Shown piece after piece: positions 2,410 to 47,059 of a DNA stretch of 64,000 nt. Position numbers and translations under genes: made by a program. The notes below the pieces were generated by a model, which had not been told where the DNA came from, made no database searches, and was given only the letters and a program-made list of their open reading frames with translations. Numbering within the stretch: the stretch's first letter is position 1; each line of letters begins with the position of its first letter. This DNA comes from a virus, in the IMG/VR virus record IMGVR_UViG_3300020171_000001, positions 93,288-157,287 of that record; one strand, 5' to 3'.

Positions 2410-4086
2410 ATGGGTCAGGGTAGAAGCCGCATCGACAACAAGTGGGAGAGCAGTACGCTGCGAGGCATGCCCTCGAAAGACTTCGGCGTTCTCCTGGCCT
2501 TGGGCGTCACCGAGTGGGGGCCGGAGGACGTCACTGCGGTGACCTCGTTCGATGACTTCCGTACGAAGTTCGGTCGGTTCCTGACCAGCTACGACCTCGC
2601 GTTGCAGGTCTGGCTCTTCTTCAAGCTGGGCGGGACACGAGCCTACGTCAAGCGGATCTTCCACTACATCGGGCACGGCGTTGGCGACAGCGCTACCCCG
2701 GTGACAGCCGCGCGGGGAACGACCACGCTCTCCACGGCCGGGGGGCTCCCCTACGGTGTGCAGCAGACGCTGCAGGTGGACGGCCTCTACTTTGGGGCTC
2801 TCGCGCTGCGCGTGGAGGTGATCCTGGCGTCAAACGGCTCGACCGAGTATTTCGACCTGAACGTGTACCATCCCGAGTACACGCTCCCGATCGAGCACAT
2901 TCGGAACGTGACCATGGACGAGGCCTCCGTGGACTACGTCGAGGACGTGGTCAACACGTCAGTGCGACGGAGCAGCTACATCACGGTGACCGATCTGTCA
3001 GCGACGGGCACGGCCACACAGCGTCGTCCGGCGGACCTGGTCTCGCCGGTGCCCCTGTCTGGCGGGAATGATGGCCTCGCTGGCCTTGTCGATGCGGACT
3101 ATACGGGCGGACCGACCAACCGGACCGGCCTCTACGCGTTCAATCTGGTCGACGAGGGGAACTTCCTGATCGTCCCGGACAACACGGTCATCGCGACGCA
3201 GAACGCGGCCACCGCGTACTGCCGAGATATCAAACAGGAAAAGGTCGTCTTCATCCCCGATGTCCCGGCTTCGCTGAGCAGTACATCGGCCGTCAACCAC
3301 GTAACTGCGCTCACCAATTCCCGGGCTCGGTCGGGCCTGGATTGGCCACGCATGCGAATTTCGAACCCGAGTAAGGCCATCTACGGGCAAAACGTGGAGA
3401 CCCTGGCCGTCGGTACTTCGGGCGCCAGAGCTGGTCTCTCGGCTGCTCTTGGCAAGGGCGGCGTCTCCGGCGTCGTAGTTCCTCAGAAGATGTGGACGAA
3501 CCCGTCCAACGAGGTCTTCGGCTGGATTGCCGAAGCCGTGGGCCTCGAAGGCTTGGACAGCAAACACGAGGTGCTGGATCCCACCGTGCAGGACCGTGTG
3601 ACGGACTACGGGATCAACCCGGTGCTGGTGGGCAAGCGTGGGACCGACGGTCGCTACGGCGTGTGGTTCAACGACTGCCAGACGGGGGAAGCCACTTCTG
3701 CTGTGGAACTGGGATCCTTCGGCAACCAGGCTGGGCTTTCCCACCTGCGGTACATCTACACGGCCTATCTCCAGCAGCACCGAACGCAGGGAAACACTGA
3801 GATGCGGCGGTTGCAGATCGAGATGGCCCTGAAGACCAGCCTGGGTTCCTGGGCAGCTCTGGGCTGCTTCGCCACGACGGACGCCGCACAAGCGTTTTAC
3901 GTCAACGTGGACGTGGGCGGCCAGAACATCAACAACCCGTTGGTCCAGCGACAGCAGAGGATGATCATCAAGATCGGCATCGCGTTCGCGGACCCGGCCC
4001 GGTTCATGGAGCTGGTCTTCACACGGGACAATCGCGCCGTGGAGAGCTACATGCAGCAGATCACGGCCAGCACGGGCAACGCATAA
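2410..4086 (+). CDS. contractile tail sheath protein
   Basis: GVTEWGP...VTSFDDFRTKFG...FFKLGGTRAYVKRI N-terminus, LSGGNDG, GINP, C-terminal AFYVNVD...N...IGIAFADPARF typical of sheath proteins; RBS GAAAGGA. Confidence 0.92.
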   Translation: MGQGRSRIDNKWESSTLRGMPSKDFGVLLALGVTEWGPEDVTAVTSFDDFRTKFGRFLTSYDLALQVWLFFKLGGTRAYVKRIFHYIGHGVGDSATPVTAARGTTTLSTAGGLPYGVQQTLQVDGLYFGALALRVEVILASNGSTEYFDLNVYHPEYTLPIEHIRNVTMDEASVDYVEDVVNTSVRRSSYITVTDLSATGTATQRRPADLVSPVPLSGGNDGLAGLVDADYTGGPTNRTGLYAFNLVDEGNFLIVPDNTVIATQNAATAYCRDIKQEKVVFIPDVPASLSSTSAVNHVTALTNSRARSGLDWPRMRISNPSKAIYGQNVETLAVGTSGARAGLSAALGKGGVSGVVVPQKMWTNPSNEVFGWIAEAVGLEGLDSKHEVLDPTVQDRVTDYGINPVLVGKRGTDGRYGVWFNDCQTGEATSAVELGSFGNQAGLSHLRYIYTAYLQQHRTQGNTEMRRLQIEMALKTSLGSWAALGCFATTDAAQAFYVNVDVGGQNINNPLVQRQQRMIIKIGIAFADPARFMELVFTRDNRAVESYMQQITASTGNA

Positions 4087-9616: not shown

Positions 9617-10239
9617 TGCCATCAACCTACGCCGTGCAGCCACCGACCCGGGCGCGGAGGCATCTGACGTTCTACGATGTAGATACCCCGTCCAACTACA
9701 TCGTGGTGCCGTACAACCCGGTTGAGTTCTCCGGCAAGATCGAGGCAACTCTCGCCAACCCTCAGGCTGTTGGCTGGACGGGGCCAGCTGTGCAGCACGG
9801 GTCGACCGGAGGCCTGTCGCCCGTTGAGATCCCACTGCGGTTCGACGAGCGCCCGCAGACAGACGCGCGTCGTATGGGCGTTGGAGCTGGGCTATCCTTC
9901 GAAGAAGCCCGCGACTGGCTCACATCTCGGATCTACAGCCCACGGTTGGGGATTGCGCCAGTGCTGGTTACCGTGGTTTGGCCCAACACCGTGTCATTCT
10001 GCGGTGCCATCGGCAGCGTGGGTGTCAACATCACGCGGTGGGACGCCACGCTGAAAGTACGCGATGCCACGATTACCGTGTCCATGCAAGAGATCGTGGA
10101 CGGCTTCCGATCAGCGGCTTCGATCGTGGCCAACGGGTGGGAGTTCGTGCGGTCTCCGGGTACTTCCGGCGGTCAACAACCGAGCATCGGGTTAGACGGG
10201 CACACGGCAGAAGGGGACTTTCCCCCGGAGTTGCCCTGA
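9616..10239 (+). CDS. tail tube initiator (CIS tube-like) protein
   Basis: TAATG-coupled to the tape measure; YNPVEF...PVLVTVVW...ATITVSMQE pattern. Confidence 0.75.
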   Translation: MPSTYAVQPPTRARRHLTFYDVDTPSNYIVVPYNPVEFSGKIEATLANPQAVGWTGPAVQHGSTGGLSPVEIPLRFDERPQTDARRMGVGAGLSFEEARDWLTSRIYSPRLGIAPVLVTVVWPNTVSFCGAIGSVGVNITRWDATLKVRDATITVSMQEIVDGFRSAASIVANGWEFVRSPGTSGGQQPSIGLDGHTAEGDFPPELP

Positions 10240-23744: not shown

Positions 23745-24455
23745 TCAAAGGGACCGGCGGTGAATGTCCAGGAAGGGATCCGGGGGGGACACTGCGTGGA
23801 TACGCGTGGCAAGGTCTTGGACGGTTTGCTCCCGGATCTCCGGTGTGTCCCGGTTGGCGCTCCAGGGAACGTCCAGGATCGCTACGCCTTGGCGGCGTAG
23901 GACATCGACCATGAAGTCGATCTCACGGTCCAGGGCCTGTAGGTATTCCAGGGAGACGGCAGACTCGCAGGCTCGACCGGTCTGCTTCTCCATGCGGGAG
24001 ATGATGCGCTCCCGGCAGACCACGGGGGAGGACAGGATCCGGATGCACACGGTGGGCAGCAGCACCATGGTGGTCATGGCCTTGTAAATCGCTTGGTATG
24101 TATCGAACTCCCGCGCCGAGAGCGTGTCCATGGCAAGCTGCAAACGTGCAAAACACGTATCCCCGTAGAAGCTACGGTCGATGAGCGCGAGCCCGTAGCC
24201 CTGCAGTGCATGCCACTGCGCGTGGAGGTGCATGCGGAGCCGGAGTCCGAGCAGGTGAATCTGCATGGTCATGGCCCACCGCTGTGGGTCTGCGTAGAAG
24301 TCCGCCAAGTACGGATTGGCGTTGTTTTGCTCATCTGGCTCTTGGAGCACCAGCGTCTTTGGCCCCAGAGCCTGCCCCAGCTCGGCAACCAGTGTGCTCT
24401 TCCCGCTGCTGATCAGGCCTTCGACGACGATGACCTTGCTACTCCCGATGTGCAT
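23745..24455 (-). CDS. deoxynucleoside kinase (dNK family)
   Basis: VVEGLISSGKST P-loop, EP, YLADFYADPQRWA..MQ, DRSFYGD..FA; GGAGG RBS at 24455. Confidence 0.9.
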   Translation of the reverse strand: MHIGSSKVIVVEGLISSGKSTLVAELGQALGPKTLVLQEPDEQNNANPYLADFYADPQRWAMTMQIHLLGLRLRMHLHAQWHALQGYGLALIDRSFYGDTCFARLQLAMDTLSAREFDTYQAIYKAMTTMVLLPTVCIRILSSPVVCRERIISRMEKQTGRACESAVSLEYLQALDREIDFMVDVLRRQGVAILDVPWSANRDTPEIREQTVQDLATRIHAVSPPDPFLDIHRRSL

Positions 24456-24474
24456 GAGGACCTCCGCTTCCGTT

Positions 24475-26712
24475 TCATTTTGCTTCGTACAGTGATTTCC
24501 CGGTGCTGGGCTCTGCATCGAGGTAGATAGTGCCATAGGCCGTTTCCATGGGCGTGTTGCCGAAGTGCTTCATGAAGACCCTGGCCACGTCCTCGGCATC
24601 GTTCTCCCTCGCTAGGAAGACGGCTTGGTCGTGCCCGTGGAAGATGCAGTGCGCAGAGTTTCCTGGTCTCGCGTCGAGTTCCCACTGCGTCTGGCACATC
24701 TCGGAGGTCACGATCTCCGCGCCTCGGCACTGGATCCTCCAATTCGCAAACTCTGTGACAGGCGGGGGCATGACCGGCGAGTACCTCCGGCGACCGAAGG
24801 GTGGGATCTCCATGAAGCCTTGGCGCTTGACCAGGTCGATCTCTTGCTCGTGCTTCTCGTAGATCTCGTGGAAGAGCCCATGGAAGAGCCCTCGGTGGAT
24901 CTCTCGGACGAGATCCAGGGTCATCATCCGGCGGAGTTCCATGTCAACACGCTTGTTTTCTCGACTGGTACGCCAGATCTTCTCCGGGCCTCCAAGATAG
25001 AAGCCGCAGAACTCCACGTTCTTGGTGACCTTGCGGATTTTGTCTCGCTCCTCCGGCGTCTTCCGCTCCCAGTAGTCCCTGCCAAAGACGTTGACCGCCG
25101 CGAACGTGTGCGGGTCGACCTTCCGGCAGAAGTAGCTCGCTGGTTCCACTTTGCCCTGGATGACCTCGATGAGGGCTTTGCAGTCGGCTGCCCCTGCGTT
25201 CAACCGGAGTTCCAGATTGTTCTTGTCGCTGCCGACCAGGCACCAGCCGGGGGGCGCTTCGAAGAACTTCCTGTCGTCTTCTCGCTGATTTGCGACGTTG
25301 GGAGAACTTGTGAATCGGATGCCCTTCTGGTCAAACGGTTTCCACTTGGTGTACAGGACACGGTGCTCGCCAGTCCCCACGATGGCCGCTGCGTAGGCCC
25401 CGCACACGCGGTTGGTGACGACCTGCATCAGATCTTCAGTCAGGTCCTCCGGGCCGAAGTCCACGTGGTCGATTGGGTTGTTGTTGCGGTCGACGATGTT
25501 GAACGTGCCAAGGTCCGCGAGGCTGCCGCCGGCCTCTTCGACCTTCTTCCGTTCTTCGTCTGGGTCATCCTGGTAGCATGTTGCGTAGGCCTTGCTCTCC
25601 TCATCGAGAGCAACCAACATGGCCACGAACGGGTGCTCGATGTGATCGATGATCGCACGATAGCCTGTGGAGGGATCACCCCGGGCTTTGGTCGTTGCCG
25701 TGGGCACAAGCCCCAGGTTCCAGGGCGCCTGGGCGTACTTGGCGCCGAACAGTGCTTCCTGCTTGTCCGCGGGCTTGCGTGGTGAAAAGTCGGGCCAATC
25801 GAGCCATTCCCGCATGCGCTTGCGCAGGGCCAGCATGAACTTGAGCTTTTCCACGCCCATGGCCCGGCGCTTGACCATGTTGACTGGGATCCCAGTATTC
25901 TCCATGGTCCTGGCCAACTCAGCATAGCTGTTCTGCCAGAAGATGAGTTCGTCGGACATGCCCCGGGCATGGATGTGCTCCGTCAGTCTGGGCACGAGCT
26001 GCACCGTGTAGAGCGCGTCCTTGGCATTGTAGATGAGGAGCTTCCAAGGGTTATGGATTTTGACGCCGAAGCCCTCGTTGGACTTGTACTCCAGCTTCCA
26101 CGGGCCAACCTGCAGATAGGTGTGGCCCATGAATCCGAGGTCATGCGGGATATCCGGTTGGACCAGGTGGTGCAGGCCCATGGTGTCGCAGATTGGCCCG
26201 CGGACCCGGAGACCCTTGCGGTCGAGGACGCCCATGTCGAAGGGTGCGTTCTGGAAGATCTTGGTGATCTGCTCATCGGTCAAGATCTGGCGGAGCAGGA
26301 CCAAGAGCTCGAGTTCCAGGGCCTCGGGTAGCAGTCGGAGGTCGAGCAGAGGGAACGCCACGGCGACGTTATTCGGAGCGCCCTCCGCGATAGCAATGGA
26401 GTGGAGCCTGCATTTGGCATAGTCAAGGGACGTGGATTCCACGTCCACGGCAAGCGCAGGTTTGGCTTGCAGCCAGTAGCGCATCCAGGACTTCGCCGTC
26501 TCGAAGTACGTCATGAAGTCCACGGGGCCCCCCGGGAGCAGGCAGACCAAGTGCTCCTCGTGCTGACGTCCGTGCTCTGACATCTCGTATGCCTTGAGAT
26601 AGTCCATCCGGATGCAGTCTGTGATGGGCTTGATTCCCCGGATGTCTCCGTGCTTGGATTCTGCCGCGGCATGGAAGAAGGACGCGAGGTGGACCGTTGG
26701 AACGACGAGCAT
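24475..26712 (-). CDS. family A DNA polymerase with 3'-5' exonuclease and N-terminal UDG C-terminal fragment
   Basis: Exo I DVES, Exo II QNAPFD, Exo III YNAKD; motif A DKNNLELR, B RKVTKNVEFCGFY, C HDQ; ATG 26712 overlaps the upstream TGA. Confidence 0.92.
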   Translation of the reverse strand: MLVVPTVHLASFFHAAAESKHGDIRGIKPITDCIRMDYLKAYEMSEHGRQHEEHLVCLLPGGPVDFMTYFETAKSWMRYWLQAKPALAVDVESTSLDYAKCRLHSIAIAEGAPNNVAVAFPLLDLRLLPEALELELLVLLRQILTDEQITKIFQNAPFDMGVLDRKGLRVRGPICDTMGLHHLVQPDIPHDLGFMGHTYLQVGPWKLEYKSNEGFGVKIHNPWKLLIYNAKDALYTVQLVPRLTEHIHARGMSDELIFWQNSYAELARTMENTGIPVNMVKRRAMGVEKLKFMLALRKRMREWLDWPDFSPRKPADKQEALFGAKYAQAPWNLGLVPTATTKARGDPSTGYRAIIDHIEHPFVAMLVALDEESKAYATCYQDDPDEERKKVEEAGGSLADLGTFNIVDRNNNPIDHVDFGPEDLTEDLMQVVTNRVCGAYAAAIVGTGEHRVLYTKWKPFDQKGIRFTSSPNVANQREDDRKFFEAPPGWCLVGSDKNNLELRLNAGAADCKALIEVIQGKVEPASYFCRKVDPHTFAAVNVFGRDYWERKTPEERDKIRKVTKNVEFCGFYLGGPEKIWRTSRENKRVDMELRRMMTLDLVREIHRGLFHGLFHEIYEKHEQEIDLVKRQGFMEIPPFGRRRYSPVMPPPVTEFANWRIQCRGAEIVTSEMCQTQWELDARPGNSAHCIFHGHDQAVFLARENDAEDVARVFMKHFGNTPMETAYGTIYLDAEPSTGKSLYEAK

Positions 26713-26927
26713 CAGACACCTGTTCCCGACTCGAGTACCTCGACGGCACGCCGAGCCAACGTGTAGGACCTGAAGCGCTTCAAGCACACCAATGAATGCC
26801 TCCCGTGGGCCCGCAGATGGATAACCCAGCCCCCGCCGGGCTCACGGTCGCAGACTAGGCGGCAGCTGCCATCGGCCAGCGTCTCACGCAAGGCCCGACT
26901 GTCAAAGAGCATGTCCATCGTGTCCAT
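26712..26927 (-). CDS. small hypothetical protein
   Basis: MDTMDMLFD...ESGTGV; TGATG-coupled to the polymerase. Confidence 0.5.
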   Translation of the reverse strand: MDTMDMLFDSRALRETLADGSCRLVCDREPGGGWVIHLRAHGRHSLVCLKRFRSYTLARRAVEVLESGTGV

Positions 26928-27276
26928 TGGGTATGCTTCCTGTGTAGGCTGCGGTCTGCCCAAAGCGCCGTGGGCGCGAGCATCTTCGGGCATCTTCGCA
27001 GGTCTTCGACCGGAGGATGCACTGGACCCCCAGGGGGATGCCAAAGGCTTCGGTCTTCTCGCACCAGGTAGAACATGGCGTGCCGTCTGCGAGAACTCCG
27101 CCTTCTGCGCAACCGAGGCTTTGCAGGTGCTGGCACATCATCGCGCATCCTCCGGTTTGGGACCTGGGCACGACCTCTGTATCTGGTGGGCTTGGCAGGC
27201 ACCCCGCAGAGAGCACGGCGAGAACGCCAGCGAGAGCACCAGCGAGGGCCCCTGCGGCCCCTGCGTGCGCGGCCAT
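26902..27276 (-). CDS. Cys-rich lipoprotein
   Basis: Hydrophobic signal ending in lipobox LSAG-C, eight further Cys; coupled to the peptidase gene. Confidence 0.7.
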   Translation of the reverse strand: MAAHAGAAGALAGALAGVLAVLSAGCLPSPPDTEVVPRSQTGGCAMMCQHLQSLGCAEGGVLADGTPCSTWCEKTEAFGIPLGVQCILRSKTCEDARRCSRPRRFGQTAAYTGSIPNGHDGHAL

Positions 27277-28076
27277 CAACGGCTCCACGCCGGGGCATTG
27301 GACACGACCCAGAAGCCGTGCGAGGGGCCATCCGCGATGATACCCGGAGAGAGATAGCCAAAGCCCCGGTACCCCCAGGCACTGCCGAACCAGTTCTCCA
27401 CGATGAACGCGTGCTGCGACATGTCGTAACCCACGATGACCATGGCGTGGAAGAAATCGGGCTTGTCCACATGCCCGTCTAATCGGCCATGGCGTAGTGG
27501 GTTGAGCATGCTGTAGGCAATCCACGCGTTGCGCATACCGCAGGAGAAAACCACTGGGAGACCGGCCTGGAGCGCCGCGTGAACCGCGGCCACACGGGCT
27601 GCCCCGGTCTTTCGTATGGGCCGAGCGAAGCCCGGGGCCGTGTGAACAAAAGCCCGCTGCAGGACGGCAAGGCTCGGTTCCTCGTGAATGGCCTGAAGAC
27701 GCCAAGGCCAATCGGATTCTGCAGGCACACCGAGTTGCTCGACCACAGACACTGCAGACTCGAGAGAGACGGCAATGTTCCGCCAGGGGTCAGCCGGCGC
27801 GTAGACCTGCCGGGCCACAGTCCAGAGGAACAGCGGAGATGGATTCTCCCAGGCCTCCCCCGCCCGGTGTATCTTGGCCCAGACCTGCATGGCTCGGCAA
27901 AAGGCAAAAGCGACGCATGCCTTGGTGCTCCACTGCTGAATCCGGTCAGGCCCGCAGTGCGCCCGGAAGTCTACCGGGCGTGGATCGATCTCCGGCAGGT
28001 ATGCTTGGCGATCGATGAAGACGCCCATGCGGTCCGGTGCAACAGTGCTCTCCAGCGTAGCTGGCGGCGCGGGCAT
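27276..28076 (-). CDS. papain-like (C1) cysteine peptidase
   Basis: VDFR...Q-WSTKA-C-VAFA, HAMVIVGYD, ENWFGSAWGYRGFGY give Gln, Cys, His, Asn catalytic residues. Confidence 0.88.
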   Translation of the reverse strand: MPAPPATLESTVAPDRMGVFIDRQAYLPEIDPRPVDFRAHCGPDRIQQWSTKACVAFAFCRAMQVWAKIHRAGEAWENPSPLFLWTVARQVYAPADPWRNIAVSLESAVSVVEQLGVPAESDWPWRLQAIHEEPSLAVLQRAFVHTAPGFARPIRKTGAARVAAVHAALQAGLPVVFSCGMRNAWIAYSMLNPLRHGRLDGHVDKPDFFHAMVIVGYDMSQHAFIVENWFGSAWGYRGFGYLSPGIIADGPSHGFWVVSNAPAWSR

Positions 28077-29011
28077 CAGCCTGGCTCCTTGGGTACCAGC
28101 ACGAAGGGCAACTCCGCGCACTGGAAACCCCCAGCACCCGCATGACCGCCGCCCCCGTGCTTCTCGCAGACCCTCGAGAGGTCCACGCTCGGATGCGTGG
28201 TGTAGAGTCGCACGGTCCAGTGGCCGTTAGCCCAACCGAAGGTGCACATGGCGTGGTGCCGTTGCATGTCGAACACGGACTCCAAGACGAGAGAGCCCTT
28301 CTCCGCTGCGTTCATGGCCACGAGCTTCATGCCGTCGAACTCGGTCTCGAAGCTGCACGCCTTGGCCGTCTGCTCGTACTGCAGCATCTGGTACAGATAG
28401 ATGGCTTCGCCGTCCTGACATGTACTCCGGATGTCAGACTCGTCGCTCGCGAAGATCCGCTGCCAGTCCGGGGACTCGGGCATGAACTTGGCCATGCGCA
28501 TGCCGTACTGGAACGCAATCGCGTCGGGGTCTTCGTCGTGCTGCCACACGTCGTACAGGGACAGCAGATGCACGGTGCGCGGTACAGGCTCGTCCGGGAA
28601 GAAGCAGCGCCACGCCAGTTCGCACGCAGCGATTCCCTCCTCCTGGAGTCCGGCCAGTTCGTGCCCGAGTTCGAGGACACCAGCCATGGCCGACCGATGG
28701 TGGTCAATCCAGATCAGATTGCACAAGGCGTCGAGCTTGACCATCTCCTCGACGGGCTCGATGCACCAGTCTACCATGACCACCGTGGTATCTCGGTCGA
28801 CCTTGTCCCACGGGAATGGCTTGCCGTAGTCCATTCCGAGGAGCTGGGCACCTGGGAACTTCCGCAGCGCAATAGCCCCGGCGCAGCGTCCGTCCAGGTC
28901 GCTCCGGTGATACACGATGAGGGTTGCGTTGCCCACGTCTGTGTCCGCTGCGGCCGGTTCGGTAGCCAAGCCTGTGGTGCCCGCGGTGTCCGTTGCATTC
29001 ATGGTCTCCAT
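28076..29011 (-). CDS. DHH/DHHA1 family phosphoesterase
   Basis: YHRSDLDG, MVD, IWIDHH, GGGGHAGAGGF; AAGGAG RBS. Confidence 0.9.
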   Translation of the reverse strand: METMNATDTAGTTGLATEPAAADTDVGNATLIVYHRSDLDGRCAGAIALRKFPGAQLLGMDYGKPFPWDKVDRDTTVVMVDWCIEPVEEMVKLDALCNLIWIDHHRSAMAGVLELGHELAGLQEEGIAACELAWRCFFPDEPVPRTVHLLSLYDVWQHDEDPDAIAFQYGMRMAKFMPESPDWQRIFASDESDIRSTCQDGEAIYLYQMLQYEQTAKACSFETEFDGMKLVAMNAAEKGSLVLESVFDMQRHHAMCTFGWANGHWTVRLYTTHPSVDLSRVCEKHGGGGHAGAGGFQCAELPFVLVPKEPG

Positions 29012-29024
29012 GTTTCTCTGCTCC

Positions 29025-29402
29025 TTACTTGACGAGGATTGTCTGCCGGAAGTCATCGCCGAAGACTCCCCGCAGGGCTACGAACAGCGGCTTGTTGATG
29101 ATGTCAGCCACAGGCTTCTCGTGCTGCGTCTCCCCGAGTTCTCGGGGCAGGCGAAGGCCCTTCTCGGCCATGCTCGCGAGCAACCGGGAGATCCCGCGGG
29201 GTGTGAGGTCGCCGGCGTCGTTCATGCGTTTCAAGAAATGCGCGGGGATCGCCACCTGCTGCATCACCGCTTCAGCGGTTTCAGCAGTTTGGGGCACTCC
29301 GTCTTTCTCGAAGGTGAAGCGGTACCGTGTCTCGACCAGGATCTCCAGGCACTTCTCTCCGACGGCGCTGACAAAGCCACTCTGTCGCTCTTTCTCAAGC
29401 AT
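29025..29402 (-). CDS. hypothetical protein
   Basis: GGAGG RBS, MLEKERQ...; in operon. Confidence 0.55.
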   Translation of the reverse strand: MLEKERQSGFVSAVGEKCLEILVETRYRFTFEKDGVPQTAETAEAVMQQVAIPAHFLKRMNDAGDLTPRGISRLLASMAEKGLRLPRELGETQHEKPVADIINKPLFVALRGVFGDDFRQTILVK

Positions 29403-29518
29403 TGGCTGCCTCCAATTGGCGATGGATTTCCATGGCCAGTACGAATGCGTGGCCCATGACCTTCGTCTCGCAAGCCACAACGTCTTCGTAGGTCATGCCC
29501 AAGCACCGAGCGATCCGG

Positions 29519-29797
29519 TCATGTCAAAATCCCCCCGCGGGCGATGAACATGAGCGGAAACCCGTTAGCATGCGCTGGCATCAGGATCACGAGCGCTGTC
29601 CCATCAGGGAGACCCGCGATCATGTCCTTGCGCTGCTCTGAGAGCACTCGCCGCGTGTCTTCCACCACATCCAACGTCAGGTCGTGCATCTCGAAGTACG
29701 ACTCAGAGACCCCGAGCCAGCGCCCGCGCTGCCCCGTTTCGCCCGTAGCGAACAGGTGGATCTCCATCTTGCAACAGGCGCCCTGCGCGATGATCAT
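29519..29797 (-). CDS. hypothetical protein
   Basis: ATGA-coupled to the DUF1848-like gene. Confidence 0.5.
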   Translation of the reverse strand: MIIAQGACCKMEIHLFATGETGQRGRWLGVSESYFEMHDLTLDVVEDTRRVLSEQRKDMIAGLPDGTALVILMPAHANGFPLMFIARGGILT

Positions 29798-30549
29798 GGG
29801 ACTTCTCCATCGTGCCAGTAGCAATAGAGACATCCGTGGGCGCATGGCCCGTGGCCGGCGAGCAGCTCGTGCTTCCCAGCGATGCAGCCGCAGCCCTCTC
29901 GTCGCCGGTCCTGCCGCCGCGGGTCGCAGACCAGATCCTCATCGTCGGGCTTGAGACTCAGGGCCTCAAGGTCGCGATGGCTCACGCACCCCGGATCGCA
30001 CACGATGCCAGGCTCGCCGCAGACCTCGATGCTTTCAGGCTCAGGCAGGAGGTCTTGCAGGTCACTCAGTGCGTCGATGCGCGTGTCCAGAGGCGCATGG
30101 AAACCATAGGGGAGTGCAGGAGCACCAGCTGCGGCAAGGCGCGCCCGGACATGCTTGTAGTTGTCCAGGAACGAAACCCGGACTCGGTCCCCGACGCGCA
30201 GTCCTGCGAGGCGGATCACACCCTGAGATGCCTGGAGCCAGGGCCTCAGGGGGACGATGGGATCGACCCGGAGCACCGCGCGCTGGCCCCCAAGACGGTC
30301 CCGCAGCGCCTGGTAAGCCTCGAGAGCCACGAGGTGCGCAGGCACACCAGGCTCCAGGGCAGAGCCGCCGTAGCCCGTGATGGTGCTATGGACAATGATG
30401 TTCTCGGGCCAGTCCATCCCAGCGAGCCGGCGGGCGAGCTTGCCTGGGTTCTTCGTGATCAGTATGGCCGGGTGACCGTGCCTGACCCAGGGCTTCCAGC
30501 GCGTGTCGAGAGATGCGTCGCCGCGCTCTGTGATTCCAATGATGGTCAC
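29794..30549 (-). CDS. DUF1848-like (radical-SAM-related) Fe-S protein
   Basis: ITKNP, TITGYG..LEPGVP, LRVDPI, SFLD.Y, GCV and C-terminal RREGCGC...CAHGCLYCY. Confidence 0.8.
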   Translation of the reverse strand: MTIIGITERGDASLDTRWKPWVRHGHPAILITKNPGKLARRLAGMDWPENIIVHSTITGYGGSALEPGVPAHLVALEAYQALRDRLGGQRAVLRVDPIVPLRPWLQASQGVIRLAGLRVGDRVRVSFLDNYKHVRARLAAAGAPALPYGFHAPLDTRIDALSDLQDLLPEPESIEVCGEPGIVCDPGCVSHRDLEALSLKPDDEDLVCDPRRQDRRREGCGCIAGKHELLAGHGPCAHGCLYCYWHDGEVP

Positions 30550-31070
30550 GTGTTGACCTCTTCCCAGAGCTTCTGGAGATCGACAGGGTTGACCGAGCCT
30601 CGGTAGTCGTTGATCTTGCCGCGGTTTCCGGTGAGCGTTTCAAAGGCGAGACGGCCCACGGCCACGACCACGGCTTCGGGGTTCCCCTGGGTCACCGAGA
30701 GGAGCTCGCCGATGAGCCGCCGACGGCATGCCTTGGCCGAGAGCTTCTTGACCAAGTCCAGCCCCAGCGTGGCTCCGCTGGCCAGTAGAACCTTGCGGGG
30801 CTGGCAAAGCGCACAATTCGATGTCCACACCTGCTCCCGGGTGAATCCCGAAGGGTCTCCGCCGTTGGCGCACATGACCCACTGCGCCTTGCCAGTGGCA
30901 CCGACGAAGCCCCTGCCCTCGCGAACCTCACTCGTGCCTGGGCCCTCGCCCACGATGCAGAGCTTGGCCGGGTAGATACCGTCGGGCAAAACCATGCGGT
31001 CTCCGCGCAGCGGGCACAGATGACAATCGGGCTGCACGATCAGCCCGTGGTAGTAGTACGGGGCTGGCAC
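30546..31070 (-). CDS. family-4 uracil-DNA glycosylase, lacking the C-terminal PTxH motif
   Basis: CHLCPL, IVGEGPG..E...GRGFVGATG, SNCALC, ACRRRLIGEL, VVVAVGRLAF, INDYRG; stops before the His motif. Confidence 0.88.
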   Translation of the reverse strand: MPAPYYYHGLIVQPDCHLCPLRGDRMVLPDGIYPAKLCIVGEGPGTSEVREGRGFVGATGKAQWVMCANGGDPSGFTREQVWTSNCALCQPRKVLLASGATLGLDLVKKLSAKACRRRLIGELLSVTQGNPEAVVVAVGRLAFETLTGNRGKINDYRGSVNPVDLQKLWEEVNT

Positions 31071-31598
31071 CTACGGTGTCTCCTCGGGGGGCCTCGTATC
31101 CCAAATGTCTTCTGTGGCCCTTGCCGGCCCCGGATTCATGTACTCCTGCCACGTCCGGTCGAAGAAGTGCCGCCCCCGCGCTTCCTGCGACGGGCCGCCC
31201 ATCGGGAAGTACATGTGGAGGCAACCCGGAACCACGACGTCGGGGCACCCGCCCAGCGCCTGGAGTATCTCCCGGAGCCTTGAGCGGAGTTCCTCTGCGT
31301 AGCTTTCGGGGCGCGCGTGGACCACCAGAGCCAATGGCCCGCAAATGGCCGGTCTGCGCAGAGCCGCGGCCGCAGCCGTGCATAGCATCTTCGTGGTCTC
31401 GCCAGTCCTCCGTCTGGACAAGATAGCGTCGGTCGTTTGCTCGTCGCCGTTTTGCCCGCGCCGTTCCACGGCCTGTCGGATGCCCTCCAGGAACATCTCC
31501 CTCCAGGGCATTAGGCCGAGAGCATCAGCTACACGTTCTGGAGTCCAAACCGGTGCAACAGCGGCAGCAGTTGGATCCACCTCGGAACCTGTTGCCAT
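31071..31598 (-). CDS. hypothetical protein with degenerate P-loop-like motif
   Basis: SRRRTGETTKML resembles RR.GKTT. Confidence 0.5.
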   Translation of the reverse strand: MATGSEVDPTAAAVAPVWTPERVADALGLMPWREMFLEGIRQAVERRGQNGDEQTTDAILSRRRTGETTKMLCTAAAAALRRPAICGPLALVVHARPESYAEELRSRLREILQALGGCPDVVVPGCLHMYFPMGGPSQEARGRHFFDRTWQEYMNPGPARATEDIWDTRPPEETP

Positions 31599-31632
31599 CT
31601 TCAGTCTCCATTCTCGTAGCGAGAAGAATGCG

Positions 31633-31660
31633 GCCAGCCCCCAAGACCGCGGGGGCTGGC
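31633..31660 (-). terminator. 10-bp GC hairpin after the SSB gene (terminator or stabiliser)
   Basis: GCCAGCCCCC-N8-GGGGGCTGGC perfect stem, weak U-tract. Confidence 0.55.
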
Positions 31661-31671
31661 GCATCACTGCG

Positions 31672-32325
31672 TTAGCCCCTCGGCGGCGGGGGCGGGGGCG
31701 GGGGCGGGACCATGCCCTGGGCCGGGGCCGCGGGCGCCGCGGGCGCCGCGGGCGGGGCCGGCGGAGCAGCCGGCTGCGCAGGCGCCATGGGCTGGGCCGG
31801 CGGGGCCGGCGGGGCAGCCTGCGGCATGGCGCTGCCGACCTGCTGCTGGGTCACGTAGGCCCAGGTCTCGTCGGTGTAGGGGAGCCGTGCGTTGACGAAG
31901 TTGTTCGTGCCCTGCTTGTTGGGCACCAGCAGGACGATGTACCGGTAGCCGACGCACACGCCCGCGTCGATCTTGTGCCCGGACGCAGCGAGCTGCTGCA
32001 GGTAGCCGGCCAGGGCCTCCTCGCCGCCCATGCACGCGGACCAGAGGGCTTTGTGGGCCTGCATGTCGCGGGTGTCCCGCTCCTTGTCGCCGGTCTTGCC
32101 GTCCCCGATCATGTCGCTGTAGGGCCGGTCCTTCTTCTCGGTGGTGGCGTTGGGCCCGAGGACGATCTTGGTGCGGTACCGGGTGTACGTCCCGGGGCTG
32201 CTCTTGTACGCCTGCTGCGTGTCCACGTCCGTGACCTCAAGGAGATAGTACCCCTCGGGGTACGCGACGTAGCCACCGGACGGCGTGCTGAGGAACTGAT
32301 TCGGATCGAACGGGAGTTCTTTCAT
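31672..32325 (-). CDS. DUF669-like single-stranded DNA-binding protein
   Basis: FDP...YPEGYYLLEVTDVD...K N-terminus; follows the Sak4-like AAA; very high GC3; Pro/Ala-rich tail. Confidence 0.7.
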   Translation of the reverse strand: MKELPFDPNQFLSTPSGGYVAYPEGYYLLEVTDVDTQQAYKSSPGTYTRYRTKIVLGPNATTEKKDRPYSDMIGDGKTGDKERDTRDMQAHKALWSACMGGEEALAGYLQQLAASGHKIDAGVCVGYRYIVLLVPNKQGTNNFVNARLPYTDETWAYVTQQQVGSAMPQAAPPAPPAQPMAPAQPAAPPAPPAAPAAPAAPAQGMVPPPPPPPPPRG

Positions 32326-32380: not shown

Positions 32381-34495
32381 TTACTCTGACCGACTGGGCA
32401 GAGCAATATGGTTGTAGATACGGTTGTAGACAGCCCGGAAGGTGGGCACCCCTGGGATTTCCGGATCCACCAGTTTGCCTTCCGAGAATGCAAAAGCGAA
32501 TCGGTGTCCTACGCTCCCAATGCTCTTCTCATCAGGGGTCGTCCAGAAGATCGGGCGGGTGACCCGCCGGCCCACAGCACTGCCGAGCGTGATGGCCTCT
32601 TCTTTCAGCTCGGTCTGGATGATCAGGTCTGCGCCGGCCGGCACGTACGTGCGGTTTTGGCCGCTGATCCCCAGCACGATCTTGTCCACCTCGGTTTCGC
32701 CTGTGGGCCGCCCCTGCGCGTTGAGCTTTTCGCGCATGACGGCTTGCTCGTGCCCCACGATGATGCGATTCAGTGGCAGTGCGTTGATCCCCTCCTGGAG
32801 CACCTGGAGGAAGTTGTTGAACTGGCCATAGTCAGCGCGCTCGAACAGAACACCGCCCTGCTCCTGCATGCGTTCGGCCCAGCGCTTCGACGGATCGTTG
32901 CTCTTTCGCCCGAGGCCTTGCAGTCCTGGAGGCGGGCGTGTGTCGCTGAGCATGCTGTATCGGAATGCGATCAGGTCCGTCATCCAGAGCCGCTGGAGGA
33001 ATCCGATGGAGTCCAGTACAACCGTGGCCACGCCCCATGCGAGCCAGTTGGCCTCGATCATCTTGATCGCGTCCAGCAGACAATGCTTTGGCGGATACCC
33101 CGAGATGTTCTCCGCGTCACGCGACGATCCAGAGTAGTAGATGTCGAAGTGCGGTGGCTCCGACCGGTTGAAAACTGGCGGCGGCAGATCCTTGTTCTTC
33201 CACTGGCTCAGGAGGTACTGCGCGATCTGCGGGTAGGTCCCCAGCGCCGCGTTGCCGCCTTCGGCCACGATGTTCAGCACGATGGGCGCCGGCCATTGAT
33301 AGCACCAGGTGGAGTTGTGCACCACGAAGTCATTGGCCACGAAGTTGTGACTGCCGTCTACAGTCAAGTCGTAGACTGTATCGACATGGGTAGGTACCAC
33401 ACTGATGACTCGATCAAAGACAATGGGACCGAGGCGATCCAACTGGGTTTCAGATCCCCGTACCTGGTACAGCGCGGCGCGCACGACCTCTGCCTTGGCG
33501 AGCTTCCCGCCGAAGAAGCCAATCTCGTCGATGAAGCGTAGCACGTTGGCCTTGCTGGAAATAGCCAGATCAGAGCCATAATGCTCACCGCCGCGCAGAC
33601 GTTCTCCGACGATCGAGACGATACCGAAGCGGGAGAGTAGGTGTTGGACCTGCTGGACGAGGCGAGTCGATGTCGAACTATAGCTCACTTGCCCTGTGAT
33701 GTGCACCGATCCGTCGCAGGTGAACAGCCGGTTGAGAAACAGAGCCAGTTTACGCTTCTTGAGACCGAATACGAAGTCCGGGATGAACTTGTCGGGGGAT
33801 CGCAGCCCGTGCAATCCTACCTTCTTGAGGAAGGTGATGATGCTGTTGCGCTTGCCCTTCTTGCCGCGTACCCGGACGTGGGATATTCCCTCCTTGTTGG
33901 TGAACTCCACGCACTCGCCGCCTCTGGCCTCCACCGCGGCTTCGAAGTCCATACGGACCTCTGGATCAGCCTTGGTGAAGACGGGCGAGGAGCTTGGGCC
34001 AAGGGATCCGTCGGCGATGAGATAGGCCAGGATCTTGATCAGCGAGTCGTTGGTCTTGGTGCTGCCGAACATGCTCGGGTATTCGGCAATGATAGCTACA
34101 CGGTCCCCAACACCCAGATCGGAGAGGTCTTTCCAGCCTCCTCGTGTGAGGAACGGATGGTTGCCAGTAGCCTCGATGCTCCGCCCCGTCTGGGTCGTCA
34201 GTCGGTAGAGCTGGGCAGGCTCATGAATTGAATAGCCACTCGGGCGCTGCGGCACAATGACGCTGGCCTCTTTCATGGTGAAGACACTCGCCTCGCTACC
34301 TTCAACCACGTCCTTTATTGTCGTGGGGCGTCCAGTGCCCGGGTCGTACATGATCGTGTCGCCGCTCAGGCACTTCCATGTCTTGGGCGGCCCAAAGATG
34401 AGAACGGAGCACTTCTTCGATGTCTTTGGATCCACCAGGGTGGATTGGTCCACAGATGCCTCGTAGGTCACGGCGTCATTCCATTGCGCGGTCAT
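32381..34495 (-). CDS. AAA_24/Sak4-like recombination ATPase, intein-containing
   Basis: VLIFGPPKTWK|intein|ST Walker A, TVVLDSI Walker B, DYG, IIVGHE; ATGA-coupled to SNF2 gene. Confidence 0.82.
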   Translation of the reverse strand: MTAQWNDAVTYEASVDQSTLVDPKTSKKCSVLIFGPPKTWKCLSGDTIMYDPGTGRPTTIKDVVEGSEASVFTMKEASVIVPQRPSGYSIHEPAQLYRLTTQTGRSIEATGNHPFLTRGGWKDLSDLGVGDRVAIIAEYPSMFGSTKTNDSLIKILAYLIADGSLGPSSSPVFTKADPEVRMDFEAAVEARGGECVEFTNKEGISHVRVRGKKGKRNSIITFLKKVGLHGLRSPDKFIPDFVFGLKKRKLALFLNRLFTCDGSVHITGQVSYSSTSTRLVQQVQHLLSRFGIVSIVGERLRGGEHYGSDLAISSKANVLRFIDEIGFFGGKLAKAEVVRAALYQVRGSETQLDRLGPIVFDRVISVVPTHVDTVYDLTVDGSHNFVANDFVVHNSTWCYQWPAPIVLNIVAEGGNAALGTYPQIAQYLLSQWKNKDLPPPVFNRSEPPHFDIYYSGSSRDAENISGYPPKHCLLDAIKMIEANWLAWGVATVVLDSIGFLQRLWMTDLIAFRYSMLSDTRPPPGLQGLGRKSNDPSKRWAERMQEQGGVLFERADYGQFNNFLQVLQEGINALPLNRIIVGHEQAVMREKLNAQGRPTGETEVDKIVLGISGQNRTYVPAGADLIIQTELKEEAITLGSAVGRRVTRPIFWTTPDEKSIGSVGHRFAFAFSEGKLVDPEIPGVPTFRAVYNRIYNHIALPSRSE
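33314..34372 (-). mobile_element. intein (353 aa) with LAGLIDADG homing endonuclease
   Basis: Starts CLSGDT, block B TGNHPF, LAYLIADG and LFTCDG motifs, ends VYDLTV..HNFVANDFVVHN/S. Confidence 0.95.
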
Positions 34496-36585
34496 GCGTT
34501 CTCCGTTGGGAAGACCTGCCACAGGATCACTCGGTCTTCGTTGTCTTGCACGATGACGGCCCAGCCCTTTCCAGGGCAATACCCGAGGCCGGCGAGCGTG
34601 TCCTCGTCCAGACTCTCGAGACACGCCAGTGCTTCCGGCGGCGCGCCGTGCAACGCCCATTGCTCGGCCGGGACAAGAGGGAAGTCGGTAAGCGGATCCA
34701 CGAGTTCTTCAGTCGGCTCACCCACGGGCACAGGGCCATTCGCGAGTATGGGCGCGTCGCGCACATCACCAGATTCACCAGTGGGACCAGCATGCCCAGT
34801 GGACTCGTCGGCAGACTCAGGGGCCAAGGCCATTCCGGCTTCCCCCATTCCGGGTGCTACAAACGGATCCAGCACTTGAAGATGCTGGATTATGCCGTCC
34901 CAGAGAGCCCCTGCATCCTGCAACAGAGCTGTGTCACCTGCGAGGTCACGTCCTACAGCTTCGTCAGGGCCCAGTCCAAGAACATCGGAGACATCCGATT
35001 CCTTTTCTATGATGCGCTGCAGGATGCGCTCGTCGACTGGGTTGCCGTCCAAGAAAAGGTAGACGGACTCCTTCTCTGTTTCTACGTTGTCGCCCTCAGA
35101 GAGAAGACGGCCTTCTACCTGCAGGTTGGTATCAGGATTCCAGAACGGTGTGACCATCAGCGCAGCCGTGGCTGTCCGCAGGCTGTGGTTGGACACGCCA
35201 ATGCTCCCGGCCGTGCCTACAAGGATCGCATGGTCATAGTCCCCGAGCGCTGCACACACGGCCCAGCGCTTGGCCACCAGCATGCCTCCGTCTACGGGCC
35301 CGAGAATCGACACGGTCTCTGGGGCCGTCTCCCGGAGTTCAGCGGTTAGGACCTTGGCGCTCTCCCGGCGCTCGGTGAAGACGATGACTCGAGCGTGCTG
35401 CGTGGCAAGGGACAAGGCCTCGCGGGCTGCATGACGCACCTTCACAGAGGCCATGGCCGTGATAGCGTGGGTCAACGCGACCAACTTCTCCGGGTATTTC
35501 TGCGTCGACTCTGCACCCGCGCCATTGGCGTTCAGGGAGAGCCGAAAGCCCCCCAGGTTCACGCGGATCTTGGGGTTCTTTGCTTGTCGGGCCTGCGCGG
35601 CTTTGCGCCCGGCGGAAAGGATGGCTTCCTGCAACTCACTGCGCTCAGATCCTGTGAGTACAAGGCGCTTGGCTGTTCGACGGACTCGCGTACCGCCCAA
35701 CGCTGCTGCCGTGCCACGACTGACCTTTAGCGTGCAGCTGTTGATCCGCGCCCGGAGTTCCGCCGTGTTTGTGGCGCCCGTGGGCCGCCAATACACCTGG
35801 CCACCGCGTGACCGGTTCTGCTCGAGCCCCACGTACCGCACTGAGAACTCGTGGGCTGTCCCCCACTGGCCAGGTTGCATACAGTCGAGCTGGGACCAGA
35901 GGTTTTGGCGACCCGTTCGAATCGGCGTCGCCGTCAGCCCGATTCGATAGCGCACCGAAGCCATACCGCTGAGGGCCCGCGACGCGCGGGTGCGCTGCGC
36001 CGCAGGGTTCGCGATGCAGTGGGACTCATCGAAGATAATAACGTAGGGGTGCTGCCCATGGGGCAGTCGCCCGATATCCAGTGTGTTGTCATCCAGGACC
36101 TCGTAGTGCACGAAGGTCCATGTGTTTCCGGGGAGCGACGTGGTAGCTTTTCGCTGGTCCCACGGCACAACGCGGAGGTCGAAGCACCGCGCCGGATCGC
36201 TATTCGGGGCGCACCAAGTATCAAGGGCTTGGAGCGGTCCGACGATCATCCCGGGCTGACCCAGCAAACCCATGCGCCAGATGGCCTGGAGCGACAAAAA
36301 GGTCTTCCCCATGCCGGGCTGGGCATAATAGCTGCAGCCATTGGCTTGGAATCCCAGCGCGTCCAACCCATGGCTGTGGAGAGCTTCAGTCATGAACGAC
36401 ACAGCACGTCGCTGGTACCCCTTGAGTCGGTAGTGCCCGAATGGCGTACGGTCTACGGGGTCTTCGGGGTAGTCCAGAATGCTGCGAAGCGGCATGGTGA
36501 GATCCAGGCAGTTCACCGGGATGCTCTCTCCTCCGCGTGTGACGCGATAGGGTCCGACAATTTTGATTAGCGATTCCAACGCCAA
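34492..36585 (-). CDS. SNF2-family helicase
   Basis: LKGYQ, QPGMGKT, DESH, TATPI...LWSQL, WNP...QVEGR. Confidence 0.88.
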   Translation of the reverse strand: MALESLIKIVGPYRVTRGGESIPVNCLDLTMPLRSILDYPEDPVDRTPFGHYRLKGYQRRAVSFMTEALHSHGLDALGFQANGCSYYAQPGMGKTFLSLQAIWRMGLLGQPGMIVGPLQALDTWCAPNSDPARCFDLRVVPWDQRKATTSLPGNTWTFVHYEVLDDNTLDIGRLPHGQHPYVIIFDESHCIANPAAQRTRASRALSGMASVRYRIGLTATPIRTGRQNLWSQLDCMQPGQWGTAHEFSVRYVGLEQNRSRGGQVYWRPTGATNTAELRARINSCTLKVSRGTAAALGGTRVRRTAKRLVLTGSERSELQEAILSAGRKAAQARQAKNPKIRVNLGGFRLSLNANGAGAESTQKYPEKLVALTHAITAMASVKVRHAAREALSLATQHARVIVFTERRESAKVLTAELRETAPETVSILGPVDGGMLVAKRWAVCAALGDYDHAILVGTAGSIGVSNHSLRTATAALMVTPFWNPDTNLQVEGRLLSEGDNVETEKESVYLFLDGNPVDERILQRIIEKESDVSDVLGLGPDEAVGRDLAGDTALLQDAGALWDGIIQHLQVLDPFVAPGMGEAGMALAPESADESTGHAGPTGESGDVRDAPILANGPVPVGEPTEELVDPLTDFPLVPAEQWALHGAPPEALACLESLDEDTLAGLGYCPGKGWAVIVQDNEDRVILWQVFPTENA

Positions 36586-44700: not shown

Positions 44701-45522
44701 TCACTGGGCCATCCACCACTGCGTCATCCACCGGGTTCCAAACCAGAGCGCGAGCCCAGCCACAGTGAGGGACAGCAAGAGCCAGATGCACCCGGTGTAT
44801 CGGGGTAGGCCCACCGGCAGCTCCTCTGCCTGCGTCTGCCCATGGTCTGGGGCAGGTACACCCCGTGGGCCCCGTGGGCCCCTTGGGCCCCGCGGCGGGT
44901 CGTAGCCGGCTGTTGCAAGCGCGGCCAGCTGCCGAGCACGGTGCGGGCCTGGCGGGACCAGGATCTCGAAACGGGATTTGCCAGCGGGCCTCCGGGCCCC
45001 GCGGCCGCCAGACTGGGCCACGGTGACCGGCGCACCCACTGTCGGGTCGAGGATGACCCAGGAGACAGCCGGGATGTCGACTCCTGTGTTCCAGATGCGT
45101 GTGGCGACCACAGCATGCACTGAGCCCGGTTGACTGGCGATGCGTGCGGCCAAGTCTGCTCGTTCGGCCACCGTAGTGGTTTGCCCGCTAACAGCGACAA
45201 TACGCTCGACTCCAGGCAGTACGGGCAGCAGCGTCTTGGGGCCCGAGTCTGCGTTACCCGAGGTCGGGGCTGAGGACAGAGACTGTTCCGGTGCCAGTGC
45301 CCAGTCCGGCCGGAGTATCGCGACCCGGGCGCGGAGCGCCGTCGTGAGTTTGTGCATCGCAGCAATCGACGGGACTAGGACGAGCCCCGGGCCGCGGCGA
45401 ATGTCCAGGATCCGGGCCAGGGCTTTGTCTACGATCCAGGCTTCGGTGGGGTCCAGTTCCATGCCAGATTCCTGCCCATCGAATACCGCGCCTGTCCAGT
45501 CCACCTGCAGCGCATGAGACAT
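44701..45522 (-). CDS. SF2 helicase C-terminal (RecA2) domain with C-terminal transmembrane-like helix
   Basis: GLVLVPSI (IV), VATRIWNTGVDIP (V), QSGGRGAR (VI); ends CIWLLLSLTVAGLALWFG. Confidence 0.85.
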   Translation of the reverse strand: MSHALQVDWTGAVFDGQESGMELDPTEAWIVDKALARILDIRRGPGLVLVPSIAAMHKLTTALRARVAILRPDWALAPEQSLSSAPTSGNADSGPKTLLPVLPGVERIVAVSGQTTTVAERADLAARIASQPGSVHAVVATRIWNTGVDIPAVSWVILDPTVGAPVTVAQSGGRGARRPAGKSRFEILVPPGPHRARQLAALATAGYDPPRGPRGPRGPRGVPAPDHGQTQAEELPVGLPRYTGCIWLLLSLTVAGLALWFGTRWMTQWWMAQ

Positions 45523-45648
45523 ATGGCGTGCCCCCTTGTAGCTCACGGGTTGATCCATGGGGTTTGCGCGATCAGCAAAAATCTCAATCGATGTGCAATA
45601 TCGTTGAGGAATTCGCGGCAGATCGGCCTATATTTCGTGTTTTCGACA

Positions 45649-45727
45649 AAAATCTCGAACGTCTCAAAATCATTCAGAAATACCTGTGGATAAGTCGAGA
45701 TTTGTTCACTTTTGCTGTTTCCGTATA
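45649..45727 (-). repeat. right copy of 79-bp inverted repeat, DnaA box at 45685-45693
   Basis: Reverse complement of 38572-38650 with 2 mismatches. Confidence 0.95.
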
Positions 45728-45958
45728 AGGCCGGGGCATCTTTTTGGCCATCATCGGGGCCTCTTTGCAAGGGATTGAAGGCCTGAGTAGGGCCCTGTCT
45801 CACGCCATGCGTGAGACACATGAGACATACCCCAGCGTGGTCTGGCGAACTGCAGAAGTTCTCGGTTCTGGCTGCGCTACACCGGCCGATTGGCGCATGC
45901 ACGGAGCACAGCAAATGCCCACGCGCGTCTGCTTCCACGCGCTTGTGCATGTGCACAC

Positions 45959-47059
45959 TCACGCCCCTGTCTCAGCAAAGCCCGAGCCTGAGTCCCGCTC
46001 CACGTCCACGATGCAACCGCCAGACAGGAATCCGGCATCGACCAGCGCCGGCATGGATGCCTGCGCCGGCGTACGAAGTACAGGCCCGGTCAGCGCCACC
46101 ACAGACATGTTTCGCCCGTCCTGCCGACCGGCTGGAGTTGCCGACAGCCCGATGACCATCTGAGCGCGTTGGATGCCCCGCGTGACCCATGCCATGCGCT
46201 GTTCCCCGCCGAGAGTGTGGCACTCGTCAATGAGGACTCCCGTCCAGCCCCCCGGGGGCTCGTCGCCAATCCCCCCGTAGGATACGCAATGCAGCCAGTC
46301 CCAGCCACAGCCACAGTCGCCGATGCCTGTGCCGGCTTCTGCATCAGCTCCGGTGCCCGCCGCCAACTGCAACCGCGGAAGTGCCCTGTGGAGCACCCGG
46401 GCAGTCTGCCGAGCCAGCTCAGCGTTCGGCGCAATGTAAAGCCAGCGCCCGCCCAGAACTCGACGGCCTACCGCCAGAATCGCGGCAGCAACCCACGTCT
46501 TGCCGGCACCGCAGCTGGCAGACAGGATCCCGCGCCCGAAGGGCGCCGAGAAGGCTGACCAGGCCAGATCTGCCTGGTAGGGACGCAATGGAGCATCGGG
46601 GACCGACGCCAGCCTCAAAAGCGCCTGGCGCAGTTCCCACGCGCGTTCTCGGGTCAAGCAACTGGCAACCTGGGGCCCGCCGGCAACACGCAGTACAGGG
46701 CAAATGCGGTCTGTTGATGCCCATGTGAACGCCGAGGACGGAGACACAGCATGGGCCATCCAGGCGACCAAGCCCATGGGCATCGTCTGGTCTGCCGAGC
46801 CCAACCCGGCAGTCCACAGCATGCCCTCCAGGGACTCTTGACATGCCCAGCGCAAGGCTCGCAAGGCCCCGGGTCGCGAAGCAGCACGACCGCGGCTATC
46901 GCGTGCGAGGCGAGACAACCCGCCAGGTGTACGGACTTCTGCATCGCACGCCAGGCGCAGCCAGGTCTCGTAAAACGATTGAGAATCAGGCCCCTCGCAG
47001 ACCCGTGCTCGGGCGTCTCCAAGGCGCATGATTTCCAAACTCACGTAGCGGGTAGACAT
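45959..47059 (-). CDS. SF2 helicase N-terminal (RecA1, DExH) domain, UvsW/XPB-like
   Basis: LRPYQ, SCGAGKT, LYIAPN..LARQ, DECH, GLSATP.R.DG, LVDAGFLS then stop. Confidence 0.85.
   Translation of the reverse strand: MSTRYVSLEIMRLGDARARVCEGPDSQSFYETWLRLACDAEVRTPGGLSRLARDSRGRAASRPGALRALRWACQESLEGMLWTAGLGSADQTMPMGLVAWMAHAVSPSSAFTWASTDRICPVLRVAGGPQVASCLTRERAWELRQALLRLASVPDAPLRPYQADLAWSAFSAPFGRGILSASCGAGKTWVAAAILAVGRRVLGGRWLYIAPNAELARQTARVLHRALPRLQLAAGTGADAEAGTGIGDCGCGWDWLHCVSYGGIGDEPPGGWTGVLIDECHTLGGEQRMAWVTRGIQRAQMVIGLSATPAGRQDGRNMSVVALTGPVLRTPAQASMPALVDAGFLSGGCIVDVERDSGSGFAETGA

Follow-up and report, generated by a model that had tools for sequence, protein, structure and literature searches.

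The window analysed here, with about 63% G+C, is the last 64 kb (positions 93,288 to 157,287) of IMGVR_UViG_3300020171_000001, a 157,287-bp virus record that is complete and bears direct terminal repeats. A replication module on the minus strand, which also encodes a UvrD helicase, an SNF2 helicase, an intein-bearing ATPase and a deoxynucleoside kinase, contains two genes that hold the motifs of one uracil-DNA glycosylase (UDG) of family 4 between them: a truncated UDG, here called UDG-N, and a family A DNA polymerase, PolA, whose first residues resemble the UDG segment that UDG-N lacks. UDG-N (30546-31070, minus strand, 174 residues) is without the last strand, the His motif and the C-terminal helix of the family. 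Its match to the Pfam UDG profile (PF03167; E 6.5e-11) is confined to positions 8-107 of the 141 in the profile; the C-terminal part is therefore missing. The motifs upstream of the break are all in place: CxxC, GEGPG..E (as GEGPGTSE), GFVG, SN, two more Cys and VVVAVG. The 4Fe-4S ligands C16, C19, C89 and C115 are all in UDG-N, and motif A (GE[AG]PG..E), the stacking Phe and the uracil-pocket Asn align to those of TM0511. The roles of these pocket and iron-sulfur (Fe-S) residues are established for family 4, and the His of motif B, PT.HP[AS], stabilizes the leaving uracil. This motif is on another polypeptide, at PolA residues 5-10. The UDG-N reading frame runs through YRG (residues 156-158) and ends 16 residues later in a short conserved tail, SVNPVDLQKLWEE, much as described in a first, sequence-only reading of this DNA, which had noted that the open reading frame (ORF) carries the family-4 motifs and stops shortly after RG, short of PTxHP. 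UDG-N is the sole UDG match in the complete 157-kb virus record.

PolA (24475-26712, minus strand, 745 residues) joins a UDG-like tail, a 3'-5' exonuclease and a family A polymerase domain in one polypeptide. Pfam recognizes DNA_pol_A_exo1 (E 2.8e-19) and DNA_pol_A (E 2e-10), at residues 106-271 and 502-766 of a single ORF; these positions are counted over 770 residues from GTG 26787 and fall by 25 when counted from ATG 26712. The GTG was rejected as the start: homologues all begin at the position of ATG 26712, which is therefore taken as the first codon of PolA, and in the numbering used from here on the exonuclease begins only near residue 80. The ATG (26712-26710) shares its A with the TGA of the upstream gene (26714-26712), and the protein opens with MLVVPTVH and reads MLVVPTVHLASFFH...IRMDYLKAY. 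The first ~48 residues, UDG-C (26569-26712, minus strand; IRMDYLKAYEMSE), comprise the last β-strand, the His motif VVPTVHLAS with His8, an insertion specific to the lineage and the C-terminal helix of the UDG, and are conserved in 28 homologues. The insertion (residues 14-30; 26650-26700, minus strand), which has low confidence in both structure models described below, marks a sub-lineage comprising the window protein, P0003 and P0004, in which H-L-A-S replaces H-P-A-A and 12-17 residues are inserted directly after the His motif.

Do the two pieces belong to one fold? When aligned to the UDG of Thermotoga maritima (1L9G/1VK2), the profile of UDG-N relatives covers 1L9G residues 16-146 and ends at its RGN (E 5e-27), and the profile of 28 PolA N-termini aligns through its positions 4-33 to residues 156-186 of 192 (E 0.03), that is, to the final strand, His motif and closing helix. 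The E value for the PolA tail is modest because the aligned stretch is short, yet the match is located where expected. The profile comparison proposed in the sequence-only reading thus places both pieces on complementary parts of the solved enzyme, and the claim that PolA, starting at an ATG that overlaps the upstream stop, begins with the missing UDG segment is borne out by the junction sequence and the alignment to residues 156-186. The same arrangement is found in single-chain UDG-PolA fusions: UDG-N maps to residues 48-176 of P0151, in which PolA continues from residue 191, and to residues 16-179 of P0071, in which PolA continues from residue 199, so that the pieces abut. Across the break, the closest fused proteins read, in the alignment, ...HGSLHPVDLQ, a loop of 0-20 residues, and then YVVPLFHPAYLLR; the cut therefore sits in a loop already variable in length.

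The division is shared by a whole group of viruses. About 30 metagenomic PolA clusters, 37-78% identical to the window PolA, are without any Pfam UDG domain, and nearly all start M-x(1-5)-[IV]PT.HPA..LR...D...KA; His8, Asp37 and Ala41 are invariant in the aligned N-termini (n = 28, 30-58% identity). A close relative was not found among deposited phage genomes, in which the best identity was 22-31% and no record covered 80% of the query. Some PolA homologues (P0005, P0007 and P0029) carry inteins (PF14890). A truncated UDG-N lies upstream of PolA, on the same strand, in 12 of 12 distinct genomes (the window and eleven relatives), and in the relatives it always has its own stop codon and the conserved tail after YRG. 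What varies is the distance between the two genes: they overlap by 1 nt (TAGTG) in L010 and are separated by 187 bp in L011, 250 bp in L007, 261 bp in L008, about 560 bp in L022, 660 bp in L021, 806 bp in L009, 1.18 kb in L001, 1.27 kb in L020, 2.2 kb in L002, 3.5 kb in L006 and 3.8 kb in the window. The spacer genes also differ from genome to genome, with ThyX, a Dam methylase and various small ORFs among them; the spacer is therefore a site of gene accumulation and not one mobile cassette. L010 (9985-9995), in which the UDG-N stop overlaps the GTG of PolA, is the most compact split form seen; its PolA ORF holds a large insertion (1014 codons open), probably an intein.

UDG-N is conserved where a glycosylase would be expected to be. 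Across 25 sequences, the pocket residues are kept in 20 (E42), 23 (E48), 22 (F55) and 24 (N85) cases, and each of the four Fe-S Cys in 22 to 25. An exhaustive search with UDG-N returned 902 relatives. Among its closest ~30 representatives, the short proteins (135-212 residues) are without the His motif; fused UDG-PolAs of 750-950 residues enter the results from about E 1e-19 downward, and these fusions are the nearest non-split relatives of UDG-N. Some homologues of ~530 residues match in two stretches (P0038, P0046, P0050 and P0051) and probably bear inteins.

A FastTree phylogeny of 22 split PolAs, 22 fused UDG-PolAs and 3 bacterial Pol I sequences (653 columns) gives the direction of change. 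All the split proteins fall in a single clade (support 100) that arises within the fused UDG-PolAs, and its sister group comprises nine fused proteins (support 98); a single change of state explains this distribution. The comparison of sequences thus shows the split to be an ancient fission, within the UDG domain, of a gene for a UDG-PolA fusion of a phage, and neither damage nor an excisable insert. The sequence-only reading had suggested that an ancestral fusion was split and that both halves were kept; the nested clade, the co-occurrence in all 12 genomes and the conserved residues all argue for this view, and the survey of relatives that it had called for finds the fragment conserved, the enzyme split in every one of the 12 genomes and the fused forms as a sister group. 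The cut is older than the gene block, and different genes gathered in the spacer later in different lineages. The gene block itself was considered as the cause of the split and rejected: the cut is the same in L010, although the two genes there adjoin and overlap.

Structure models are consistent with an interface between the two proteins. The complex of UDG-N, modelled from its alignment, with PolA residues 1-60 reached ipSAE values of 0.92, 0.93 and 0.92, whereas none of three controls exceeded 0.00; the mark applied to this score is attained by 58 of 80 solved complexes and, among 110 mismatched pairs, by 2. At least 98% of contacts are common to the runs, and the partner pLDDT (predicted local distance difference test) is 68-70. 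In the model, PolA residues 1-10 contact UDG-N residues 134-137, in the VVVAVG strand, and 160-163, in the strand after YRG; the PolA helix 33-49 contacts UDG-N residues 36-37 and 134-136; and the UDG-N motif residues 41-42 and 58-60 lie within the interface. Reassembly in trans, as put forward in the sequence-only reading, is thereby favored by a model that passes its controls (0.92 vs. 0.00). Folded alone with AlphaFold2, PolA has a pLDDT of 86.6 overall, below 50 for residues 1-31 and, with no partner, 62-68 for residues 31-50. UDG-N alone reaches 93.6, ends in a helix (residues 165-173) and matches 1UI0, 1L9G and UdgX over ~150 columns, with a TM score by target of ~0.55.

How would a glycosylase parted from its pocket histidine work? 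The fission ran through the UDG fold, and the reading we favor, and consider likely, is that UDG-N and the PolA tail rebuild the glycosylase by fold complementation on the polymerase. The cut lies in the surface loop between the β-hairpin that follows YRG and the last β-strand; UDG-N is left as a free protein short of a strand, of the pocket histidine and of the helix that closes the fold, all of which are found in the first ~48 residues of PolA. The PolA tail, predicted to be disordered alone, would insert its strand beside the VVVAVG strand of UDG-N and lay its helix on top; the rebuilt fold would be complete, and His8 would be brought beside the GEGPG and GFVG motifs. The glycosylase would thus be kept, non-covalently, at the position that it holds in single-chain UDG-PolAs and, once docked, could scan the template DNA for uracil during replication, as in the SP15-like enzymes. 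We infer that the pieces bind, that the rebuilt module is catalytic and that its activity depends on docking; the enzyme is probably whole only when docked on the polymerase. A bolder version, to which we would give slightly less than an even chance, is that the pair is a natural enzyme switch: UDG-N would be catalytically dead until the N-terminal peptide of PolA provides the strand and the pocket histidine, excision would be confined to the replisome, a free glycosylase would be unable to nick phage or host DNA elsewhere, and the ~45-residue tail would be a ready-made, genetically encoded complementation tag.

The pieces may also assemble to a different end, if the rebuilt module is no longer a glycosylase and instead gives the polymerase a DNA-binding, processivity or base-sensing role, of the kind put forward for N4-like UDG-PolAs. 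There are precedents: UDG-PolAs without catalytic UDG residues have been described, and a role in processivity suggested for them (Czernecki et al., 2023, PMC10201439). Motif A is altered in some UDG-N relatives (GKCPG, VGDFPD, VNDGPS), and the window lineage has HLAS in place of HPA. Yet most members, the window included, keep both Glu, the Phe, the Asn, the four Cys and the His, residues that the N4-like enzymes lost, and we regard a non-catalytic module as unlikely. It is more improbable still that UDG-N is autonomous and that the UDG-like start of PolA is a leftover of the fusion that now serves PolA, for example as a linker or a helix packing on the exonuclease. The high-confidence model of UDG-N alone, with its own conserved C-terminal tail and helix, would fit such a protein, as would the pLDDT of 62-68 that PolA residues 31-50 retain with no partner. 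However, a leftover would not be expected to hold an invariant His and a PT.HPA strand in 28 sequences at 30-58% identity; residues 1-31 are not placed with confidence when PolA is folded alone; the His motif is never regained in the closest short representatives of UDG-N; and the virus record of the window has no other UDG match.

Could the 3.8-kb block instead be removed to yield a single chain, by deletion at a repeat, an intron, ribosomal bypass or trans-splicing? The sequence-only reading had raised this alternative, pointing to a GGCTCGG that occurs in the same reading frame at 30593-30599 and 26751-26757, and the phage does have an intein elsewhere. The 7-mer is present at both places, and the suspicion, voiced at the same time, that it may be a chance match agrees with its count in the window, 23 observed and 23.06 expected. 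Longer repeats on either side of the block were looked for and not found, and Rfam returns 0 matches at E ≤ 1 over 24000-32000, for introns or any other RNA family; a group I or II intron or other excised RNA element in the spacer was accordingly rejected. Joining the pieces at the 7-mer would draw on a frame that lies before the conserved start of PolA, within the neighboring gene, and in the eleven relatives the spacer differs in length and content, with UDG-N keeping its own stop and tail and PolA its own coupled start. An intein or protein trans-splicing was rejected as well: neither UDG-N nor PolA has a Pfam intein domain, the UDG-N tail is only 16 residues long and PolA opens directly with the UDG strand. 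We therefore give next to no weight to removal of the block at the DNA, RNA or protein level.

Several points weigh against a glycosylase rebuilt on the polymerase. The match of the PolA tail to the solved UDG is weak by itself (E 0.03), and in the lineage of the window itself the motif is H-L-A-S, not H-P-A, with 12-17 extra residues after it. The complex model shows that the pieces fit the fold and not that they associate in the cell; its pass partly reflects likeness to intact family-4 UDGs of solved structure and may largely stem from the model's memory of that fold. UDG-N, modelled with confidence alone and with a helix of its own, might not need PolA to be stable, or perhaps even to be partly active. 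The tree was computed with FastTree only, from fused rows picked by UDG similarity and split rows picked by PolA similarity.

The fold complementation proposed for UDG-N and PolA can be set against several known systems. UDG-PolA fusions are already on record, as is the constant placement of their UDG domain between the exonuclease and the polymerase (PMC10201439), and recent work showed that they link replication with the removal of uracil; in the SP15-like enzymes, the UDG is active and scans the template ahead of the fork (PMC13697223). The single-chain proteins used for comparison are those of SPO1, SP-10, SP-15/YerA41/phiLo and N4-like cluster 17 (Czernecki et al., 2023, PMC10201439; Missoury et al., 2026, PMC13697223, PDB 9QHS). 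The split clade is nested among such proteins (support 98-100 for descent from the fused lineage) and keeps the catalytic residues as the SP15-like and SPO1-like enzymes do, but here no ORF joins a complete UDG to PolA: the enzyme is encoded by two genes, 0 to 3.8 kb apart, and the cut is inside the domain, with ~160 residues free and ~45, including the His motif, on PolA. For T7-like phages, a gene fission between exonuclease and polymerase has been reported, as the first such division observed among PolAs (PMC10201439). In these cyanophages of the S-SBP1 group, as in the window, a family A replicase is divided between two genes whose pieces are predicted to reassociate; there, however, the cut falls between whole domains, whereas here it passes through one fold and parts an active-site residue from its pocket, and the exonuclease and polymerase are contiguous in the window PolA. 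Free-standing family-4 UDGs (TM0511, 1L9G; Thermus thermophilus, 1UI0; UdgX) have every motif that the two pieces have in combination, but no single polypeptide here has them all, UDG-N corresponding to residues 16-146 of 192. Poxvirus E4/D4 and herpesvirus UL2 (cited in PMC13697223) likewise place a glycosylase on a replicative polymerase with no covalent link, as proposed here from the model; those are complete autonomous folds of another family that bind through their surfaces, whereas here completion of the fold would do the binding. Literature searches turned up no account of a cut that runs within the UDG fold: the words “split” and “fission” are absent from PMC13697223, and Yutin 2024 (PMC11348598), consulted for a UDG acting in trans, does not mention UDG.

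If confirmed, this would be a natural case in which the fold of a repair enzyme is completed by a replicase, with the active-site histidine on the polymerase. It would (i) make it possible to test directly if glycosylase activity has to be limited to the replisome; (ii) show that fission through a domain can stay stable across a divergent clade, with PolA identity to that of the window down to 37%; and (iii) provide a small natural peptide-protein complementation pair. For annotation it carries a warning: such PolAs appear to be without a UDG domain and such UDGs appear truncated, yet they belong together.

The spacer of the window, 3,833 bp from the UDG-N stop to the PolA ATG, holds six clear ORFs, one fewer than the seven genes first counted, all on the minus strand. 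Next to UDG-N, a 251-residue DUF1848 protein (29794-30549; PF08902, E 1.3e-18) has a start that overlaps the UDG-N stop; it is followed by ORFs of 108 (29519-29845) and 151 (29025-29480) residues with no family, a DHH-family phosphoesterase of 326 residues (28076-29056; phrog_4771, E 1.3e-38; the Pfam DHH match is weak, E 1.5e-4) and a 281-residue ORF (27276-28121) with a weak Peptidase_C39_2 match below the Pfam cut-off. The DUF1848 and DHH phosphoesterase genes (28076-30549) were not seen in the spacers of relatives. The sixth, small ORF (26712-27044) is translationally coupled to PolA, encodes 71 residues from ATG 26927 or 110 from TTG 27044, and has no family in Pfam or PHROGs. Its C-terminal motif, F-[RH]-S-Y..A......E, recurs in L011 (about 3690-3871) and L007 (about 9741-9992). 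A conserved third gene between the pieces was considered and rejected: this PolA-upstream ORF is common only to the window, L011 and L007, and the small ORFs upstream of PolA in L001, L002, L006 and L008 are unlike it.

Elsewhere on the minus strand of the window, an intein (Intein_splicing, E 1.3e-19) that includes a LAGLIDADG homing endonuclease (LAGLIDADG_3, E 1.1e-17) splits the sequence of a 759-residue protein of the replication module (32381-34660). A helicase at 44701-47059 is apparently encoded in two ORFs, with a ResIII/DEAD N-terminal half at 45959-47059 and Helicase_C at 44701-45558; wedged between them, with overlapping ends, is a 139-residue ORF of no known family (45543-45962). 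The phage may thus have, in this helicase, another gene that is broken up. Finally, a 535-residue ORF (60819-62426, minus strand) weakly matches, below the cut-off, the beta clamp of DNA polymerase III in its N-terminal domain (E 8.6e-5) and may be a phage sliding clamp.

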